From contig QCOD01000008.1 of NCBI GenBank assembly GCA_003209955.1, forward strand, positions 508 through 64,507: a stretch of DNA of 64,000 bases. Direction: 5' to 3'. Made by a program: the position numbers and the translations under genes. Under the pieces are notes generated by a model. The model was not told the origin of the DNA. It did not search any database and was given only the letters and a program-made list of their open reading frames with translations. Positions 1,295-55,260 of this stretch are shown here, piece after piece. Source of the DNA: OCS116 cluster bacterium AG-430-B22. GTDB lineage: Bacteria; Pseudomonadota; Alphaproteobacteria; MED-G09. How positions within the stretch are numbered: the stretch's first letter is position 1; every line of letters starts with the position of its first letter.

Positions 1295-1323
1295 TTATCC
1301 ACAGAAAAATGAAGTTATCCACA
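1295..1323 (+). promoter_or_regulatory. Two direct perfect DnaA-box 9-mers TTATCCACA (1295-1303 and 1315-1323)
   Basis: Exact matches to the consensus DnaA box were read directly. They are 20 bp apart in the same orientation, in the thrS-downstream intergenic region. The sequence match is certain but the function is not. Confidence 0.5.
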
Positions 1324-1379
1324 ATTAAATGAATGTTGATGATTGCTTGTCAATTAAAGTTATGGTTATATGAACTTGT

Positions 1380-1611
1380 CGGTCGCAATGACCAATGACC
1401 GATGGGCGGGTGAGAAGCCGCAGTGAGGATCGAATGGTATAAGATCCATGGTGGAAAGAAAGATAGCAATATCTGGAAAGAAACCAGCCAGAAACAGAAA
1501 GCTGGTCTTGAAAAAGAAGGAGCACTGAAGAAAGGTAGCGGAAGATCATGGTTTAATCGGGGGCGATTAAGTCAAACTTAAAGGGAGCTTGATGAAAGTT
1601 CCCTTTTTTTT
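1380..1611 (+). ncRNA. Candidate stand-alone structured small RNA of unassigned family
   Basis: This intergenic stretch is GC-rich (34/60 G+C at 1381-1440 by hand count, against ~30% background). Hairpins lie at 1427-1447 (GGATC/GATCC), 1483-1506 (ACCAGC/GCTGGT) and 1553-1570 (TTAATCG-GGGG-CGATTAA). It ends in an intrinsic terminator, and no + strand gene follows. The 5' end is a guess. Confidence 0.5.
1582..1611 (+). terminator. Rho-independent terminator (stem AGGGAGCTT / AAGTTCCCT, one mismatch, then an 8-T run)
   Basis: The stem-loop plus TTTTTTTT was read directly on the + strand. The T-run overlaps the stop codon of the convergent nifU-like gene. Confidence 0.6.
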
Positions 1612-2032: not shown

Positions 2033-3392
2033 TTTTTTTCTTCCAAGTAGTAATATCATTCTTATCTTCAAGCACCACACCCATATCTAAAAGTTTATCT
2101 CTTATATTATCTGCAACTGAAAAATCTCTAGATTGCCTTGCTTGATTTCTTTCTTCAATTAGATCGTTAATTACTTTTATATCAATATTATTGTCTTCTT
2201 TTAATAGCCAATTACTTGGTTTTGAAAATAAGAGTCCCATAAAGTTAGCAGATTTAATAAATGAACTTCTTAACTCATTATTATCAGGATCTTTTTTTAG
2301 ATCTTTAAACATTGAGTGGAGAACTGATATTGCTTTTGGTGTATTAATATCATCAGATAAAGAACTAAGAATTTCTTCATTAACATTAATATCCATAGTA
2401 TCAACACCTTCATATTGTTCTAGGAAAGAATAAAAAGTATTTAATGTTTTTTTTGATTGATCAACTAAATCATCTGACCACTTTAAAGGCTGCCTATAAT
2501 GAGAGCTCATTAAAGATAGCCTTATTACTTCGCCGGGCATTTCATTAATTAAATCTTTAATTAAAAGAATATTTCCAAGAGATTTAGACATTTTGGAATC
2601 TGCCATTTGAACCATTCCATTATGTAACCAAAAATTTGCTAATTGCTTACCATCATTTCTACAAAATGACTGCGCACACTCATTTTCATGATGAGGAAAC
2701 CTTAAATCTTCACCTCCACCATGAATATCTATAGTTTCTCCAAATATCTCTAGAATCATAGTCGAGCATTCTAGGTGCCATCCTGGCCGCCCTCTTCCCC
2801 AAGGACTGTCCCAGCCAATCTCATTTTCATTAGAAGGTTTCCACAAAACAAAATCTAAAGGGTTTTTTTTGTAATCTTGAACTTCAACTCTTGAGCCTGC
2901 AATCATATCTTTAGGATCTCTGCTAGATAAATCCCCATATGATTTATAAGAATCAATATTAAATAACACATGTCCCTCAGAAAAGTATGCATTATCTTTT
3001 TTTATTAAATCCTCAATAAATAAAATCATCTCAGAAATAAATTGTGTTGCATAAGGCTCCTTATTAGGTTTTTCAACATTCAAAATTTTCATATCTGAGT
3101 GATATTGATTTGTAGATTTCTTGGTAATTTCAGATATTTCAACATTTTGCTCAAAAGCAGCATTTATTATTTTATCATCAACATCAGTTATATTTCTCGC
3201 ATATGTAACATTTTTATATTTATTTCTTAGTAATTTTGCCAATACATCAAAAACTACTGCTGGTCTTGCATTACCAATATGATGTGCCCCATAAACTGTC
3301 GGGCCACATACATACATAGTCACATTTTCATCATTAACAGGATGAAATATCTCTTTTTTCTTACTTTTTGAGTTATATAATCGAATTTCCAT
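2025..3392 (-). CDS. cysS: Cysteinyl-tRNA synthetase
   Basis: Class I motifs HIGN (HIGH) and KMSKS are present, and the protein is full-length compared with CysRS. Confidence 0.95.
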   Translation of the reverse strand: MEIRLYNSKSKKKEIFHPVNDENVTMYVCGPTVYGAHHIGNARPAVVFDVLAKLLRNKYKNVTYARNITDVDDKIINAAFEQNVEISEITKKSTNQYHSDMKILNVEKPNKEPYATQFISEMILFIEDLIKKDNAYFSEGHVLFNIDSYKSYGDLSSRDPKDMIAGSRVEVQDYKKNPLDFVLWKPSNENEIGWDSPWGRGRPGWHLECSTMILEIFGETIDIHGGGEDLRFPHHENECAQSFCRNDGKQLANFWLHNGMVQMADSKMSKSLGNILLIKDLINEMPGEVIRLSLMSSHYRQPLKWSDDLVDQSKKTLNTFYSFLEQYEGVDTMDINVNEEILSSLSDDINTPKAISVLHSMFKDLKKDPDNNELRSSFIKSANFMGLLFSKPSNWLLKEDNNIDIKVINDLIEERNQARQSRDFSVADNIRDKLLDMGVVLEDKNDITTWKKKND

Positions 3393-3507
3393 AGCAAAAA
3401 TCTATAAAATACTTGTATTTTCTTATATTAATATCATATACATTGCTATATTAGAAAATTAATCAAAGTAAAAGTCACAATTTTGTCTTTTATGTCAGGA
3501 GATTATC

Positions 3508-4122
3508 ATGGATATGAAAGTTGATAAAAATCAAATCGATTTAGATCAAGAGAAGCCTACGAGGGAAGAAGCTATGGATGCAGTTAAAACCCTTATATCA
3601 TGGGCTGGTGATAATCCATCTCGTGAAGGGTTGATAGACACACCTAAAAGAGTTGTGAAAGCTTATGAAGAATTTTTTGCAGGCTATAATCAAGATCCTC
3701 TATCTACTCTAAGTAAAACATTTGAGGATGTTCAGGGTTATGACGATATTGTCTTTCTAAGAGATATTAATATAGAAACTCATTGTGAACACCATATGGT
3801 ACCAATTCTAGGTGTTGCACATGTGGCCTATTTACCTAGAGATAAAGTGGTTGGTATCTCAAAACTAGCAAGAGTAATTGATATTTTTGCAAAGAGGCTT
3901 CAAACTCAAGAAACCATGACGATGCAAATTCTTGAAACCATTGATCAAGCACTAGATCCTCTCGGTACAGCTATAATGATTGATGCTAAGCATCAATGTA
4001 TGACGACAAGAGGCATTAGCAAGCCTAATGTATCAACAGTTACTACCAAATTTTCAGGATTATTTGCTGAAGATAGTGAGCTAAGACAGAGATTTATGGG
4101 CCTAACACAAGCAAAAGGTTAA
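3508..4122 (+). CDS. folE: GTP cyclohydrolase I
   Basis: REGLIDTPKRVVKAYEEFF, ETHCEHHMVP and RLQTQE are FolE signatures. AGGAG lies 6 nt upstream of the ATG. Confidence 0.93.
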   Translation: MDMKVDKNQIDLDQEKPTREEAMDAVKTLISWAGDNPSREGLIDTPKRVVKAYEEFFAGYNQDPLSTLSKTFEDVQGYDDIVFLRDINIETHCEHHMVPILGVAHVAYLPRDKVVGISKLARVIDIFAKRLQTQETMTMQILETIDQALDPLGTAIMIDAKHQCMTTRGISKPNVSTVTTKFSGLFAEDSELRQRFMGLTQAKG

Positions 4123-4124
4123 TT

Positions 4125-4613
4125 TTGTCACAAAATTACGAAAATAATTTCAAACAAAGATTATCAGTCGAAGAGGTTGAAGAAGGTCTTTCTCTAAGCC
4201 CTAAATTTGATGAAAACGGTTTAATACCATGTATAACCACAGATAATAATACTGGTGAATTATTGATGGTTGGCTATATGAACGCTGAGGCATTAACTAA
4301 AACAATAGAAAATGGTGAGGCTTATTATTTTAGCCGTTCACAGAAAAAAATTTGGCATAAAGGTTCTGTTTCGGGTTTAACCCAAAAAATTGTTGAAATG
4401 AGAATTGATGATGATCAAGATTCTATTTGGATATCAGTTGATGTATCAGGAACAGGCGCTAGTTGTCATGTTGGATATAAATCATGTTTTTACCGATCAA
4501 TTCCTTTGAAGTCTAAGGTTAATGAAAACATTGAACTTATAATGAGCGATGAAGAAAAGCTTTTTGATCCTGATGAAGTATATAAAGGCCTTCCAAACCC
4601 AACAAAGTTATAG
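4125..4613 (+). CDS. hisI: Phosphoribosyl-AMP cyclohydrolase (monofunctional HisI)
   Basis: GLIPCITTD...LMVGYMNAEAL...YYFSRSQKKIWHKG..SG..Q and CHVGYKSCFY are HisI signatures. It uses a TTG start 2 nt after the folE stop. Confidence 0.9.
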   Translation: MSQNYENNFKQRLSVEEVEEGLSLSPKFDENGLIPCITTDNNTGELLMVGYMNAEALTKTIENGEAYYFSRSQKKIWHKGSVSGLTQKIVEMRIDDDQDSIWISVDVSGTGASCHVGYKSCFYRSIPLKSKVNENIELIMSDEEKLFDPDEVYKGLPNPTKL

Positions 4614-4988
4614 TTAATCTGGAAATTTTTCAAAAGGAAATGGTTTTTGATCATTATTACCTGTTGAAAACAAAAGACATTCCTTCAAATATAAAGATAA
4701 TCTTCGAGAAAACTCATTTAATTCAGAAAGCTGACCAGAATCAACTACCCTCACTATAAAAGATAAAATAGATAAAACTACAATTACCCAAAAAGACATC
4801 CAAGCTAAAATAAGAAAAGCAACACAGAATATAAATTCTTTAAAATACTTAAAAACTTTTATAGCAATTTGATCATCTGCAGATTTTGCCTCAGAAGGCT
4901 GACTAGTTATTTCGTCATCAGATTGATTATTCAGTGAGTTATCTGAATTCTCAAATTCTTCATTAATATCTTTATTATCTTCATTCAT
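4614..4988 (-). CDS. Hypothetical membrane protein with an acidic N-terminus and hydrophobic core
   Basis: The ORF fills the gap exactly, abutting the hisI stop. One or two predicted TM helices (FIFCVAFLILAWMSFWVIVVLSILSFIV). I do not recognise the family with confidence. Confidence 0.55.
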   Translation of the reverse strand: MNEDNKDINEEFENSDNSLNNQSDDEITSQPSEAKSADDQIAIKVFKYFKEFIFCVAFLILAWMSFWVIVVLSILSFIVRVVDSGQLSELNEFSRRLSLYLKECLLFSTGNNDQKPFPFEKFPD

Positions 4989-5032
4989 GAATACATATCT
5001 TTCATAATAAATTTTCTATATCAACAAAAAAA

Positions 5033-5647
5033 TTAAGAATTCTTTGTTAATTTATTCAATTTATAGTCAATAAGCTCAATCCTATCATTACCAAAATACA
5101 TATCATTATCATTAATAAAAATCGTAGGCGATCCAAAACCGCCCCTTTCAATAAGACTTTCAGTATTATTTCTAAGTTTATTTTTAACTGTTTCTTTTTG
5201 TATTGAGTGAAAAGTTTTTGAAGGATCCATACCACAATTTTTTAATATTCTTTCTAAAATATCGTTGTCTCCAACATTAAGATCATCTTCCCAATAGGAT
5301 TTAAAGCAGAGACTTGCAAATTCTACCAATTTATTTTCTTCTTCCGCAATAATGGCTATTCGCATCATTTTAACAGCATTTACAGGAAATATTGATGGCC
5401 ACTTTATCTTAACTTCCGATAATTCAGCCCAATCCTGCATATCTTTTCTTGAGTATTTAAATTTTCTTGGATTTGGGTTTTCTCTCTGAATATATATATC
5501 TTTATTAACCTCATTGAAAACACCTCCAACTAATATTGGTTTCCAGATTGGCCTAATACTGTATTTTTCTAAAACTGAATGAATTCTTGAAAAAGCTAAA
5601 TAAGTCCATGGAGAGGAACAATCAAAAAAAAACTCAAATTTAACCAT
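5033..5647 (-). CDS. DsbA-family 2-hydroxychromene-2-carboxylate isomerase-like protein
   Basis: The N-terminus FFFDCSSPWTYLAF and C-terminus GGFGSPTIFIN...FGNDR are typical of HCCA isomerase/DsbA-like thioredoxin-fold proteins. The start was moved to the ATG at 5647 (MVKFEFFFD). Confidence 0.75.
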   Translation of the reverse strand: MVKFEFFFDCSSPWTYLAFSRIHSVLEKYSIRPIWKPILVGGVFNEVNKDIYIQRENPNPRKFKYSRKDMQDWAELSEVKIKWPSIFPVNAVKMMRIAIIAEEENKLVEFASLCFKSYWEDDLNVGDNDILERILKNCGMDPSKTFHSIQKETVKNKLRNNTESLIERGGFGSPTIFINDNDMYFGNDRIELIDYKLNKLTKNS

Positions 5648-5652
5648 TAAAG

Positions 5653-6429
5653 TTATTTTCCTTTCCAATCAGGTTTTCTTTTTTGAGAAAAAGCAAGAGG
5701 ACCTTCTACAAAATCTTCACTCTTAAATAATGAAATAACTGAATCATATTTTTGATTCATTGCTTCTTCAATTGATGAAAAGTTTAAGCCATTTAAAGCA
5801 ACATTTTTAGTTGTTCTGATAGAAACTGGTGAGCATTCCATAATCATCTCAGCCCATTCCTCAGCCCTTATTAATAATTCTTCTTGGGACACAACCTCAT
5901 TAACAAAACCAAGGTCTTTGCCTTCCGAAGCTTTTACTGTTCTACCTGTTAACATCATTCCCATTGCTCTTTTTAAACCTATCTGTCTCGGAAGTCGGTG
6001 CATACCTCCTGCAAGAGCAGCCAAACCAACTTTAGGTTCAGGAAGAGCAAATGTTGCATTATCAGAGGCAATAATCAGATCACATGCTAATGCAATTTCA
6101 AACCCTCCTCCCATAGCCACTCCATTAACTGCGGCAATTATTGGCTTGTTGAGATCATATCTTGATGTAAGACCAGCAAATCCAGATGGGACACTCTCCA
6201 TTTTACCCCCTTCAGCTTGATATTTTAAATCATTACCTGCTGAAAAGGCCCGATCACCTGATCCAGTTACAATTGCAACCCAAGCCTCATTATCTTTTTG
6301 AAAATTATTAAAGATCTCATCTAATTCTTTATGAGCAGGTGAATGTAAAGCATTCATTCTTTCTGGTCTATTAAGGGTTATAATCCATAAATGTTCTTTT
6401 TTTTCTATAATAGCAAATTCGTAAGCCAT
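5653..6429 (-). CDS. Enoyl-CoA hydratase/isomerase (crotonase) family protein
   Basis: LNRPERMNAL, FSAGNDLK and AAVNGVAMGGGFEIALACDL are crotonase signatures. AGGAG lies 6 nt upstream of the ATG at 6429, so the GTG at 6444 was discarded. Confidence 0.85.
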   Translation of the reverse strand: MAYEFAIIEKKEHLWIITLNRPERMNALHSPAHKELDEIFNNFQKDNEAWVAIVTGSGDRAFSAGNDLKYQAEGGKMESVPSGFAGLTSRYDLNKPIIAAVNGVAMGGGFEIALACDLIIASDNATFALPEPKVGLAALAGGMHRLPRQIGLKRAMGMMLTGRTVKASEGKDLGFVNEVVSQEELLIRAEEWAEMIMECSPVSIRTTKNVALNGLNFSSIEEAMNQKYDSVISLFKSEDFVEGPLAFSQKRKPDWKGK

Positions 6430-6440
6430 AATTTCTCCTG

Positions 6441-6968
6441 TCACAATAATTTTAAATTTTCTTTATAATTTTTCCAATTCTCACAATAATGATCTGCTGA
6501 AGCAATTAAAAAACTTTCCATATCTTTATCAATCGTCCTTATAACTTTGCCTGGCACCCCAACAACCATTGAATTATCTGGAATTTCTTTTTTTTCAGGA
6601 ATAAGTGTTTTAGATCCAATAAGACAATTTTTTCCAATTTTTGCCCCATTTAAAATTACTGTTCCAATACCAATAAGTGAATTATCTCCAATACTACAAC
6701 CATGAAGCATAACTTGATGGCCAATTGTTACATTCTTTCCTATTTTTAGAGGAAAACCATAGTCAGTATGTAAAACACTTCCATCTTGAACATTACTATT
6801 TTCTCCAATAAGAATTTCTTCACAGTCACCCCTTAGAGTAGCTGAGAACCAAACGCTTGAATTTACTTTCATTTTTACATCGCCAATAATATTAGCATCA
6901 GGAGCAACCCAATATCTCTCATCATCAGGCAATATAGGTTCTTTATCGTTAAGTTTAAAAATCGGCAT
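6441..6968 (-). CDS. Gamma-class carbonic anhydrase-like hexapeptide-repeat protein (YrdA/PaaY-like)
   Basis: It has a left-handed beta-helix repeat pattern (IGDV.., [48 protein letters not shown]). The start was set at the ATG at 6968 (MPIFKL). Confidence 0.8.
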
Positions 6969-6975
6969 TAGTGCA

Positions 6976-7386
6976 TTATAAATCAAAATCTAAAATTGAC
7001 ATCGAAAATGTACATGAAGCATCATTATCTCTAAAAACAACTCCTATAAATTCTTCCTCATCATTTTCATTTAGTATTAATACTTCCTTAGAATCTTCAA
7101 TTGACCCCCTATCAGAAATAATGATTTTCTTTTTTTTAGATAAAGATTGAATATTTGTTTCAAGATTTTCTTTATCAGTAATTGAATGATCTATTGGAAT
7201 AGTTAATGAATAAGAAATATCCTCCTCATCGGGATCATCATCTTTTTGCAAACTTCCAATAGCTTCGGAATAAATAAAAAAAGACGCAGTTGGGGGAACA
7301 TCTTGATCTTTTCTTATAGATATATCTTCGTTATCAAATATATCTCTTAAATAGTTTTGAATTATTAAAATTTCATCATTATTCAT
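6976..7386 (-). CDS. DUF3126-like protein, apparently a tandem duplication of the domain
   Basis: Both halves resemble the ~70-aa alphaproteobacterial DUF3126 that usually neighbours cysE. The N half has IQNYLRDIF...ISIRK...[26 protein letters not shown]. The C half has IIISDR...SKEVLIL...[26 protein letters not shown]. Confidence 0.6.
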
Positions 7387-7396
7387 AATTAAGCCT

Positions 7397-8128
7397 TTAG
7401 TTATTTATGACTTTCGCGGGCACACCAACAGCTGTACAATCTTTTGGAATATCATCTATTACCACTGATCCTGCACCAATTTTTGCATTATCGCCAATTT
7501 TTATATTTCCGACTATAGTTGAATTAGCTGACAACAAAACATTCTTTCCTACTTGAGGGTGTCTTTGTCCTTTTTCTGATCCAACTCCACCTAAAGTTAC
7601 GCCATGAAATATAGAAGAATAATCTCCTACTATAGCTGTTTCACCTATAACAACTCCAGATGCATGATCTACCATAATACCTTTACCCATCTTGGCATTA
7701 GGATGTATATCAACATTAAATTTTTCTGAGACAACTGATTGAATATACAATGAAAAACTCAGTTTTTCTTCAACCCAATAATTAGCAACTCTATATGCCT
7801 GTAATGCGTGAAACCCTTTATAAAAAAGCATTGGTTGAAAAAAATAATTACATGCAGGGTCTTTATGATAAATTTCATTTATATCCTCTTCTATCGCATG
7901 AATAATATCTTTACTTTTAAAAGCAACGCCAACATCATGAATAATATTGTCTTCATGAACTTCCTGCGATTTTAAATTTTTACTTATTAATAATGACAAT
8001 GCATCAGATAAATTATTAAAATTTAAAATATTATTCTTAAAATAATATTTCATAGTTTTATCATTAGAAAATAATTCGACTTCTTCTAAAATTTTATTCC
8101 AGAGATCTTCTTTATAAAGTTTTTTCAT
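7397..8128 (-). CDS. cysE: Serine O-acetyltransferase
   Basis: The N-terminal SATase helical domain is followed by DIHPNAKMGKGIMVDHASGVVIGETAIVGD...GVTLGG hexapeptide repeats. Confidence 0.9.
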   Translation of the reverse strand: MKKLYKEDLWNKILEEVELFSNDKTMKYYFKNNILNFNNLSDALSLLISKNLKSQEVHEDNIIHDVGVAFKSKDIIHAIEEDINEIYHKDPACNYFFQPMLFYKGFHALQAYRVANYWVEEKLSFSLYIQSVVSEKFNVDIHPNAKMGKGIMVDHASGVVIGETAIVGDYSSIFHGVTLGGVGSEKGQRHPQVGKNVLLSANSTIVGNIKIGDNAKIGAGSVVIDDIPKDCTAVGVPAKVINN

Positions 8129-51567: not shown

Positions 51568-52806
51568 ATGTCATTAATCCTACCCTTTAAAGCTCTAAGA
51601 CCATCAATAGATAAGGCTAGTGATGTAATTGCGCCACCTTACGATGTTTTAGATTCTGGTGAAGCAAGAGAAATGGCAAAAGACAAACCATATAGTTTTT
51701 TGCATATCTCAAAACCAGAAATTGATCTTGAGGAAGAAATAAATTTTAATGATGAAAGCGTTTATAAAAAAGGGGCAGAAAATTTAAAAAATTTTATCGA
51801 GGAGGGTATTCTTTATCAAGATAAGAAGGAATGTTTATATCTTTATGAAATAACCCTTGATAACAAGACTCAGACAGGATTTGGTTGTATTGCTTCAATT
51901 GAAGCTTATAACAAAAATATAATAAAAAAACATGAATTTACAACTCCAATAAAAGAAGATGATCGTGTTTTAAATATCAAAGAGCTTGAAGCTCAAACAG
52001 GTCCTGTTTTACTGGCTTACAAACAGAACTCTTTTATGAAAAAAGTATTAAAGGAAAATAAAAAAGGTGATCCAATTTATAGTGTAATAGGTCCAGACTC
52101 TTCAGAACATAAAATATGGCCAATAGAAGATGAACTAGAGATAAATAAAATTGTTTCTGAAGTGAATTCCATGGGTACATTATATATAGCTGATGGACAT
52201 CATAGATCTGCTGCTGCATCAAGAGTTAGTCAAGAAATAAATGAATCTGGAACTAATAATTCAAAAAGTCACAATTTTTTTCTATCAGTTGCTTTCCCTC
52301 ACTCTGAAATGAATATCTTAGATTACAATAGAATTATTTCAGGATTAAATAATTATACTTCAGATGAACTTTTAAATGAGATTAATAAAAATTTTATAAT
52401 TAATAATATTTCTAGTTCATGCAAGCCTGTTCAAAATAAAGAATTTGGAATGTTTTTGGATAACGCTTGGTACAAACTTAATTTAAGAGAAAGTATCGCT
52501 ATAAAGGATGATCCAGTCAATTCATTAGATGTGTCTATTTTACACAATTTAATTATTTCTCCATTACTTGGAATTGAAGATGAGAGAAGAGATAAAAGGA
52601 TAAATTTTGTAGGCGGTGCGAGAGGGGTAGAAGAATTAGAAAAAAGAGTAAAACATGGTAAATACGATATAGCTTTTTCTTTATTCCCAACCCCTATTGA
52701 AGCACTTTTTAAGGTTGCAGATGCAGATAAGGTAATGCCTCCTAAATCTACATGGTTTGAACCAAAGTTACTTGATGGATTACTATCTCATAAGATAAAT
52801 GATTAA
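51568..52806 (+). CDS. DUF1015 family protein
   Basis: MSLILPFKALRP....VIAPPYDVL and YIADGHHR are DUF1015 hallmarks. The internal ATG at 51568 matches homologous N-termini better than 51529. Confidence 0.8.
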   Translation: MSLILPFKALRPSIDKASDVIAPPYDVLDSGEAREMAKDKPYSFLHISKPEIDLEEEINFNDESVYKKGAENLKNFIEEGILYQDKKECLYLYEITLDNKTQTGFGCIASIEAYNKNIIKKHEFTTPIKEDDRVLNIKELEAQTGPVLLAYKQNSFMKKVLKENKKGDPIYSVIGPDSSEHKIWPIEDELEINKIVSEVNSMGTLYIADGHHRSAAASRVSQEINESGTNNSKSHNFFLSVAFPHSEMNILDYNRIISGLNNYTSDELLNEINKNFIINNISSSCKPVQNKEFGMFLDNAWYKLNLRESIAIKDDPVNSLDVSILHNLIISPLLGIEDERRDKRINFVGGARGVEELEKRVKHGKYDIAFSLFPTPIEALFKVADADKVMPPKSTWFEPKLLDGLLSHKIND

Positions 52807-54276: not shown

Positions 54277-55260
54277 TTAATCTAGCTTAACTAATTCGGG
54301 GCATAACTTATCACTCAATCTATCATTGCTTTGAATTACGCTTATTAATTCAATATTCTCTTTGCTAAGTTTGGTGATATTAGAGTTATCATTAGATATC
54401 GCATTTGGGTCATTGAGAAATTTAAAAAACTCACTGTCTGGTGATAAAACTATAGTTGTATCTGACCCAAGAGACTCTTCATATGATTTCATCGAGCGAT
54501 AAAAAGCGAAGAAATCCGGATCAAGACCATAAGCAGAAGCAAAAATTCTATTCCTACATGCATCACCAGTGCCTCTTATAATCTCAGCATCTCTGGTAGC
54601 TTCTGCCACGAGAACTGTAACTTTTTTTTCAGCTTCAGCTCTTATTCCTCTTGAAATTTCTTGGCCTTTAGCCCTAAATTCTGCAGCCTCTTGCTGTCTT
54701 TCAGTTTGCATTCTTCTATATATAGCCTGACTATTTGCATCGGGTAGATCTGCTCTTTTAATTCTAACATCTATAATATTTATCCCTAAATCATTTGCCT
54801 GCACATTAACTATTTCGCTAATACGAGCCATTAATTCATCTCTTTCATCTCTAACAACAGTTACAAACTTTTCACCACCTAAAACAGACCTTAAACTAGA
54901 AGAAACAATAGCTTGAAGTCTTGAGCGAGCAATTCTTTCATCGCGAACACTTATATAAAACTGAAGAGGATCACTTATTTGCCATCTGGTAAATGAATCA
55001 ACAACCAAACGCTTTTGATCTGATGCAATAACTTCCTCTGCAGGTGAATCTAAATCAAGAATTCTACGGTCTAAAAATTGAACTTGCTGAATGAATGGCA
55101 CTTTAATTTTAAGGCCAGCATCAGTTATGGGAGCACCAACTGGTCTCCCAAATTGCAGAACAATAGCTTGTTTTGTTTCATGTACAGAATAAAATGTATT
55201 AACTGAAACTAAAAATAGTAGACCCAAAAAAATCAGTAATGCTATTTGCTTTCCTTTCAT
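54277..55260 (-). CDS. hflC: Protease modulator HflC
   Basis: This SPFH/band-7 domain protein has a single N-terminal TM. It directly follows hflK with a TAATG overlap. Confidence 0.92.
   Translation of the reverse strand: MKGKQIALLIFLGLLFLVSVNTFYSVHETKQAIVLQFGRPVGAPITDAGLKIKVPFIQQVQFLDRRILDLDSPAEEVIASDQKRLVVDSFTRWQISDPLQFYISVRDERIARSRLQAIVSSSLRSVLGGEKFVTVVRDERDELMARISEIVNVQANDLGINIIDVRIKRADLPDANSQAIYRRMQTERQQEAAEFRAKGQEISRGIRAEAEKKVTVLVAEATRDAEIIRGTGDACRNRIFASAYGLDPDFFAFYRSMKSYEESLGSDTTIVLSPDSEFFKFLNDPNAISNDNSNITKLSKENIELISVIQSNDRLSDKLCPELVKLD

Follow-up and report, generated by a model that had tools for sequence, protein, structure and literature searches.

A previously undescribed structured RNA gene, preceded by two DnaA boxes, in the marine alphaproteobacterial order PS1/OCS116

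Among the RNAs described so far, those that come closest by behaviour to the one reported here are 6S RNA, Ms1, which occurs in mycobacteria where the canonical 6S RNA is missing, and the orphan abundant RNAs of the ocean. RNAs of a comparable kind (6S, OLE, raiA and ROOL) have each opened new biology. Yfr103 and Tan1 are two of the abundant orphan RNAs of marine bacteria (PMC5069720). Here, a stretch of 64,000 nt from OCS116 cluster bacterium AG-430-B22 (assembly GCA_003209955.1, contig QCOD01000008.1, positions 508 to 64,507; hereafter the window) was analysed and its positions 1377-1611 on the + strand were found to encode a structured non-coding RNA that had not been described before. The RNA belongs to one uncultured, streamlined marine alphaproteobacterial order, PS1/OCS116 (the PS1 clade and the OCS116 cluster, some carriers being labelled Rhodobiaceae bacterium), with a total of 25 species genomes in three genera (g1, g2 and g3). 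Of the non-rRNA transcripts of this widespread ocean bacterial group it is one of the most abundant, and no described family or function fits it. Overall, the best explanation of the locus as a whole, with a rough probability of 0.55, is a new structured RNA with a DnaA-coupled promoter and a stable protein-binding role.

Fold, processing and abundance of the RNA

Structure statistics were calculated from 39 distinct full-length homologues, with controls in which the pairing partners were slid by 1-3 columns. Standard pairs filled 97.3% of the helix cells compared to 29-48% when the partners were slid, and 21 pairs showed changes on both sides compared to 0-5 in the slid controls. The original prediction, made from the letters of the window, had named covariation in relatives as a check of its RNA candidate, and this result bears it out. 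The primary transcript folds into six helices and a terminator, as follows.

1377..1611, + strand: primary transcript of ~235 nt, from the putative start site to the terminator T-run.
1378-1385 / 1396-1403, + strand: P1 hairpin, 8 pairs, 99.7% paired, 4 with compensatory changes.
1390..1394, + strand: L1 segment GACCA, whose proposed partner is the P3 loop at 1435-1439; 5 pairs, 96.9% paired.
1406-1409 / 1418-1421 (1406..1421), + strand: P2 (GCGG/CCGC), within the invariant block UGGGCGGGUG; pairs invariant in the 39 sequences.
1427-1432 / 1442-1447, + strand: P3 hairpin with a conserved UGGU in its loop, 6 pairs, 5 with compensatory changes.
1449..1486, + strand: P4, made of a closing helix, a 7x7 purine-rich internal loop, a distal helix and a GNRA tetraloop at 1466-1469.
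~1487..1536, + strand: P5 variable domain, an irregular hairpin whose RNAalifold pairs show CG/UA exchanges.
1552..1571, + strand: P6 hairpin, UUUAAUCG-GGGG-CGAUUAAG, 100% paired in the 39 homologues, nearly invariant, one-sided changes only.
1580..1611 (stem 1580-1606), + strand: intrinsic terminator with an 11-bp stem, a 5-nt loop and T8, 4 pairs with compensatory changes.

In P4, compensatory changes were found in 6/6 pairs of the distal helix, the internal loop had conserved G-A ends (closing G-A pairs), and the tetraloop varied as GCAA, GAAA, GUAA and GCGA, always within the GNRA class. P2 shows no covariation and is a plausible helix. The loops of P1 (UGACCA) and P3 (UGGUCA) are invariant and can pair with each other. 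Four of the L1-L3 pairs never vary, and in genus g2 both sides have changed to add a sixth pair, G-U. It is plausible but unproven that L1 and L3 form a kissing loop or pseudoknot. An all-against-all covariation scan gave no convincing long-range tertiary pairs beyond the helices listed. P5 in genus g2 has ~60 extra nt that form two UUCG-capped hairpins, and in L008, L010, L013 and L014 the arm contains a tandem duplication of a GAAGUCCCUUCGGGGA unit that gives rise to these two hairpins.

Several local features had already been described in the original prediction. Direct recounts returned the same 34/60 G+C for its GC island at 1381-1440, compared to 32.4% for the whole window, and agreed with its A/G-rich region at 1441-1550, where 80/110 nt (73%) were purines; the 150-nt purine content at the RNA locus lies in the top 0.02% within the window. 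The repeated decamer TGGAAAGAAA was found at 1452 and 1474 and nowhere else in the window, and its two copies are the two strands of the P4 internal loop, the sequence of which is not conserved. Six GGA motifs had been counted in 1441-1550 and only four are there (1453, 1475, 1519 and 1540). Among the proposed hairpins, 1427-1447 corresponds to P3, which has covariation support, and 1553-1570 with its GGGG loop to P6, while 1483-1506 folds in the window sequence alone and the comparison prefers the longer P5. The proposed terminator was the sole terminator-like site in 1200-2200. The next gene (1610-2080) is convergent and encodes a NifU_N domain; the statement that no + strand gene lies 3' of the RNA was therefore correct, and the analysis supported a stand-alone + strand transcript that is neither a leader nor a riboswitch. 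The size of ~230 nt given for it holds for the primary form, while the abundant species, which had been missed, is a processed form of ~177 nt.

The processed form was seen in metatranscriptomes, in many of which, of marine origin, the sequence was present. These data are assembled contigs, which carry no direction and give an approximate depth. Transcription and discrete ends, which had also been proposed as a check, were both found: in X27, X29, X32 and X37, from four different studies, adapters abutted position 1386 at the 5' end and 1561-1564 at the 3' end. Coverage was limited to the element, with zero depth from thrS to 1385, and in X32 and X37 the depth was zero at 1370-1384 and past 1565. 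The adapter-defined ends together with the zero flanking depth indicate the following dominant molecule.

1386..1562, + strand: dominant processed RNA of ~177 nt, with adapters abutting 1386 and 1561-1564.

The mature RNA is without the P1 5' strand, the P6 3' strand and the terminator, and the terminator region was almost free of depth in the abundant RNA. Both ends are in hairpin loops, the 5' end where the P1 stem meets its loop and the 3' end in the loop of P6. Rare contigs started at 1376-1379 and included the P1 5' strand, and rare longer 3' forms extended to 1577 and 1588; these fit a longer precursor that starts near 1377. Head-to-tail joints were also found; they were heterogeneous and resemble the result of template switching on an RNA of very high abundance rather than a circular form.

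The summed contig word depth of the RNA was up to 2.9 million in X24 and X25, 0.84 million in X29, 0.72 million in X32 and 0.64 million in X37. For the organism-specific parts of RNase P RNA the depth was 64-416 in X24, 4,500-33,000 in X29, 16-200 in X32 and 2,400-7,900 in X37. The organism's own tmRNA contigs had a depth of ~200-1,300, and the flanking thrS, NifU-like and cysS genes had 0-18. Overall, this placed the RNA two to four orders of magnitude above both tmRNA and RNase P RNA in the same cells. An unannotated RNA of such abundance distorts metatranscriptome normalisation for the PS1/OCS116 clade.

A BLAST search against 61 relatives showed that the RNA was present in 17/25 genomes of PS1/OCS116 and in 0/36 other alphaproteobacterial families, and a covariance model of the 5' domain recovered the identical 17 genomes. 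A conserved 25-mer searched over 185,579 species genomes returned only PS1/OCS116 carriers, a stray contig of 678 bp and a GC-rich 'homologue' (L050), which was dropped as a chance pattern match within a coding region. In addition, a metagenome scan produced 26 further copies. The motif was not found on viral contigs and a phage origin was dropped. The literature on PS1, OCS116 and marine small RNAs gave no relevant record of the RNA.

The Rfam cmscan of the window returned tmRNA and one tRNA only. For the RNA there was no match at the gathering score and no credible one at E<=10 on a 451-nt slice (1250-1700) and a 115-nt slice (1376-1490); a known family, which the original prediction had left as the alternative to a new one, was thus not borne out. 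The RNA is not SRP (signal recognition particle) RNA, RNase P RNA or 6S RNA, to none of which the original prediction could match it; tmRNA is located elsewhere, and RNase P RNA was located elsewhere in every genome tested. As far as can be told, the RNA is a real and undescribed class, with an anatomy and an expression that are well supported and a function that we infer.

The predicted promoter, the DnaA-box pair and the neighbourhood

The + strand appears to be transcribed from the RNA's own sigma-70-type promoter, which is read from the following elements.

1343..1371, + strand: predicted sigma-70-type promoter, with -35 TTGCTT at 1343-1348, a 17-nt spacer and -10 TTATAT at 1366-1371.
1295..1303, + strand: DnaA box 1, TTATCCACA, a perfect match centred ~-79 from the start site.
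1315..1323, + strand: DnaA box 2, TTATCCACA, a perfect match centred ~-59 from the start site.

The promoter was absent from the output of a simple consensus scan. Its -35 element is TTGACC in most relatives, and between box 2 and P1 the conserved blocks are the -35 TTGAC and the -10 hexamer only. The assignment to the + strand follows from the many G-U pairs, which are C-A mismatches on the other strand, and from the orientation of the promoter and the terminator.

With the box pair defined as two perfect boxes with a spacer of 9-14 nt, it was found exactly once in each of 18/25 genomes, always before the RNA, and in none of the seven RNA-less genomes. The 18 genomes with boxes compared to 17 with the RNA are probably explained by one contig that ends before the RNA. 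Both boxes were perfect in 23/26 metagenome copies and one box in 3/26; three g2-type metagenome copies have lost box 1 and kept box 2. The genome of the window has 17 perfect DnaA boxes in 1.24 Mb, among which the pair at the RNA locus is the only close pair. Seven of these 17 are intergenic. A perfect box was also found at G000:C1:126194 (L099:495-503), where it follows the gene for RNase P RNA by 34 nt and precedes the next gene by ~115 nt.

The box-to-box spacer is 11 nt, and 12 nt in genus g3. The distance from box 2 to P1 was 54-55 nt in 33/39 copies and 63 nt in six g3-type copies, a shift of about one helical turn, which is what phased activator sites would show. The boxes at ~-59 and ~-79 are probably such phased activator sites, and the output of the RNA would then follow DnaA availability. 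If true, the DnaA link would stand as a clear example of a non-coding RNA driven by the replication initiator and would tie replication status to a global RNA pool. A chromosomal origin (oriC) at the boxes was rejected: the pair is missing from six genomes, near-complete ones among them, and it lies away from the turning points of the GC skew. On a contig of 792 kb the site is found at 665 kb, whereas the turns of the cumulative GC skew are at ~71 kb and ~534 kb.

The terminator adjoins the stop codon of the convergent NifU-like gene. A convergent gene stood directly after the terminator in all contexts, and the test for a riboswitch or 5' leader therefore failed. On the other side, thrS ends at 1284. 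The upstream neighbour is thrS on the + strand here, a divergent yidD-thrS pair in most of g1 and g3, and tRNA-His in g2. As this neighbour differs by lineage while the boxes, the promoter and the RNA stay one unit, the locus is a self-contained module.

In most genomes, the genes divergent from the RNA promoter are yidD (membrane protein insertion efficiency factor) and then thrS, for example with yidD at L005:1224-1478 and equivalents in L003, L011, L012, L017 and L018. The yidD-thrS segment appears to be inverted in the window's own lineage, where thrS is on the + strand. Finally, one single-cell genome (G005:C1) has two copies of the whole module, at 51771-52097 (-) and 54297-54618 (+). 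These copies are 2.2 kb apart, inverted, and 92% and 77% identical to the window copy; they represent either a genuine inverted duplication or an assembly chimera of two strains.

Possible functions of the RNA

The whole PS1/OCS116 order appears to be without the signal recognition particle. SRP RNA was found in 0/25 genomes of the order compared to 34/36 genomes of other alphaproteobacterial families. The Ffh M domain (PF02978) was found in 0/4 genomes of the order and the SRP54-type GTPase domain (PF00448; Ffh and FtsY) in 0/8 genomes that are 80-97% complete; both domains were detected in two small-genome controls, and SRP RNA, too, occurs in other alphaproteobacteria with small genomes. 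A tblastn search was negative in the genome of the window and in the 792-kb contig of another genome. In the genome of the window (G000:C5:30943-35104), rpsP-trmD-rplS comes 140 nt after dapF and a convergent gene comes after an mtaB-like gene, so neither ffh nor ftsY occupies its customary place. The rpsP gene of this region (G000:C5:33524-33765) has a repetitive GC-rich C-terminal extension of EEAPAEEAK-type units, which is one of the few GC islands in the genome. SAR11 has SRP (PMC2704228). If confirmed, the loss in PS1/OCS116 bears on whether free-living bacteria can dispense with SRP. A link between the RNA and the loss of SRP is tempting because yidD is the usual neighbour, and is weakened by the SRP-less genomes without the RNA. 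In addition, 6S RNA was not detected in g1 or g2. At its canonical place in the genome of the window (G000:C14:112-961), there is no 6S RNA but a spacer of 19 nt between zapA, which ends at 384, and the ygfA-like gene, which begins at 404. In genus g3, a 149-nt 6S-like RNA was found at zapA-ygfA with an Rfam score of 44 bits, just below the cut-off.

The leading single option for the function, held tentatively and at less than even odds, is a stable protein-binding RNA. The size, the trimming of the ends, the abundance in slow-growing populations, the conserved core with a variable arm and the lack of a canonical 6S RNA in g1 and g2 all point to this reading. The RNA would be the core of a ribonucleoprotein (RNP), or would sequester an abundant global factor such as RNA polymerase, in a role akin to that of 6S or Ms1 with a different fold. 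The binding surface would be formed by the conserved 5' domain, with P5 as a variable arm at the periphery, and the 5' tail could pair with the P3 loop to give a compact fold that protects the end. DnaA bound at ~-59 and ~-79 probably activates the promoter.

Several points weigh against this explanation of the locus. The strand and the start site are drawn from sequence logic, as the metatranscriptome runs are undirected contigs, and DnaA binding is predicted from the consensus boxes. P2, P6 and the L1-L3 pairing show no covariation. The contig word depth is a rough measure that sums related strains. The protein-binding role is a proposal, the fold is a string of hairpins and not the 6S rod with a central bubble, and genus g3 keeps its 6S-like RNA at zapA-ygfA alongside the RNA. 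Finally, six g2 genomes, three of them 93-97% complete, have neither the RNA nor the box pair, which means that the RNA is dispensable.

Other functions were weighed against the same data. A trans-acting small RNA (sRNA) that base-pairs with mRNAs could use as seeds the P1 3' strand and the P6 5' strand that processing exposes; Hfq is encoded in this genome (tblastn), and the segments freed by processing (1396-1403 and 1552-1562) are conserved. However, the mature form, which ends at 1561-1564, is without the terminator U-tail used by Hfq-dependent sRNAs, its abundance far exceeds any mRNA pool, conserved tertiary-type motifs as elaborate as those it has are not typical of seed-type sRNAs, and the P1 3' strand varies, covarying with the strand that is discarded, all of which make this function unlikely. 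The depth of the RNA exceeds that of tmRNA or RNase P RNA by a factor of 10^2-10^4, which is in the range of ribosome-level copy number and would suit an RNA bound to the ribosome at about one copy each. Such an RNA might slow or park translation, in the way that the SRP Alu domain causes pausing, and so ease life in an order without SRP RNA, Ffh and FtsY, where in most genomes a membrane-insertion factor, yidD, is the divergent neighbour; GGGCGGGUGA...NGUGAG followed by a hairpin presumably has a loose likeness to the Alu 5' domain. Nevertheless, no Rfam SRP model matched, even with the 115-nt slice, and the six g2 genomes without the RNA are also SRP-less. Complementarity to rRNA, including the 16S 3' end, gave nothing conserved above shuffled controls, which also speaks against the anti-Shine-Dalgarno role suggested in the original prediction, and an apparent 5S match was dismissed, as it is a duplex of 8 bp that includes a G-U pair and falls in 5S helix I. 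The 23S rRNA was 2735-2742 nt in genomes both with and without the RNA, and a ribosome-associated function is consequently held to be decidedly improbable. A split piece of 23S rRNA, considered because the 23S rRNA has 2742 nt compared to a model of 2925 positions, was rejected on the same equality of length; the 23S and 16S rRNAs matched their Rfam models end to end, and the LSU and SSU rRNA models gave no match on the RNA. Still bolder, and a long shot, is that a ribosome-level-abundant RNP RNA under direct DnaA control would replace part of a lost housekeeping function, e.g. by pacing membrane-protein translation, in what is possibly the first free-living bacterial lineage without SRP (g1 being also without 6S).

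The complementary, invariant L1 (UGACCA) and L3 (UGGUCA) loops could also join separate molecules into homo-oligomers like RNA cages, or the RNA could be a ribozyme that produces its own loop-located ends; the GNRA tetraloop, the G-A-closed internal loops and the position of both mature ends within hairpin loops would be in line with either. Little weight is given to these options, as no known ribozyme family was matched, 177 nt is small beside known cage-forming RNAs and the loop pairing could equally be intramolecular. Sequestration of CsrA/RsmA through GGA motifs, which the original prediction had suggested, or of an Hfq-type protein through ARN motifs, draws on a purine content of 57-70% in all homologues and on 4-5 GGA and several ARN runs in window-type copies. 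Across the homologues, however, GGA counts varied from 1 to 10, ANGGA from 0 to 5 and ARN-repeat runs from 0 to 21, with no ARN runs in many lineages, and the GGA motifs sit in internal loops or stems and not in hairpin loops. The search for a GGA-binding CsrA that had been proposed with this idea, a tblastn with E. coli CsrA, gave no match better than E = 4.0 in the genome of the window, which is 80% complete, and such a sponge is hardly credible. A very divergent housekeeping RNA would account for the failure to find SRP RNA in 25/25 genomes and 6S RNA in g1 and g2. A helix 8 with GGUCAGGUCCGGAAGGAAGCAGCC-type symmetric and asymmetric loops was nevertheless not found in the RNA or in the genome (regex; nhmmer profile of alphaproteobacterial SRP RNAs), the region of the RNA aligned to SRP helix 8 varies between genera, and the absence of Ffh and FtsY leaves an SRP RNA no partner; a divergent SRP RNA was rejected on these points and on the lack of an Rfam SRP match. 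A divergent 6S RNA was likewise rejected, with no RF00013 match, a series of hairpins instead of the bubble fold and coexistence with the 6S-like RNA in g3. A small protein gene could be read from the 52-aa open frame at 1423-1581, which had no Pfam match; close relatives differ in its length and C-terminus, indels of 1-2 nt and the ~60-nt insertion disrupt it, and the variation follows base pairing instead. The divergent housekeeping RNA and the small protein are thus largely refuted and very improbable, and the stable protein-binding RNA is kept as the preferred reading.

Comparison with known RNAs

Every testable defining feature of the known RNAs failed, and the RNA belongs to none of them. 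CsrB/RsmZ and CrcZ sponges are likewise purine-rich, with repeated short motifs, which the RNA has in some copies. In the RNA, however, the number and place of the motifs are not conserved, no CsrA was found in the genome of the window, and the conserved part is a folded 5' domain and not a repeat array. OLE, raiA, ROOL and GOLLD also have many conserved helices, tertiary-type motifs, variable peripheral arms, high expression and an undefined biochemical role, whereas the RNA is smaller, unrelated in sequence, from another phylum and habitat, and without a conserved neighbouring protein gene.

SRP RNA (4.5S RF00169; large RF01854) shares with the RNA the GNRA-capped hairpin, the symmetric purine-rich internal loop and the abundance, and the two are alike in niche in that the RNA is found only in the lineage where SRP RNA was not found. 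The RNA differs in being without the universal helix-8 motif, in its loop of 7x7 compared to 4x4, in its host genomes without Ffh and FtsY, and in being missing from some equally SRP-less genomes.

The likeness to the marine IMES-1 to -4, Yfr103 and Tan1 RNAs is in behaviour: all are lineage-restricted and strongly structured, dominate the non-rRNA reads of their host group and have an undefined function. The RNA matches no Rfam IMES model or other family and its host is PS1/OCS116, and neither a conserved DnaA-box pair at the promoter nor ends located in loops are reported for IMES, Yfr103 or Tan1. The RNA differs from 6S RNA (RF00013) and Ms1 in that it does not fold as a rod around a central bubble, has no match in Rfam and stands beside a 6S-like RNA in g3; RNA polymerase binding is for it only a proposal. 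Like 6S RNA and Ms1, it is a stable RNA of ~180 nt that is trimmed at both ends from a longer transcript, has a housekeeping-type promoter of its own and reaches very high levels in slow-growing cells; like Ms1, it is found in genomes without a canonical 6S RNA.

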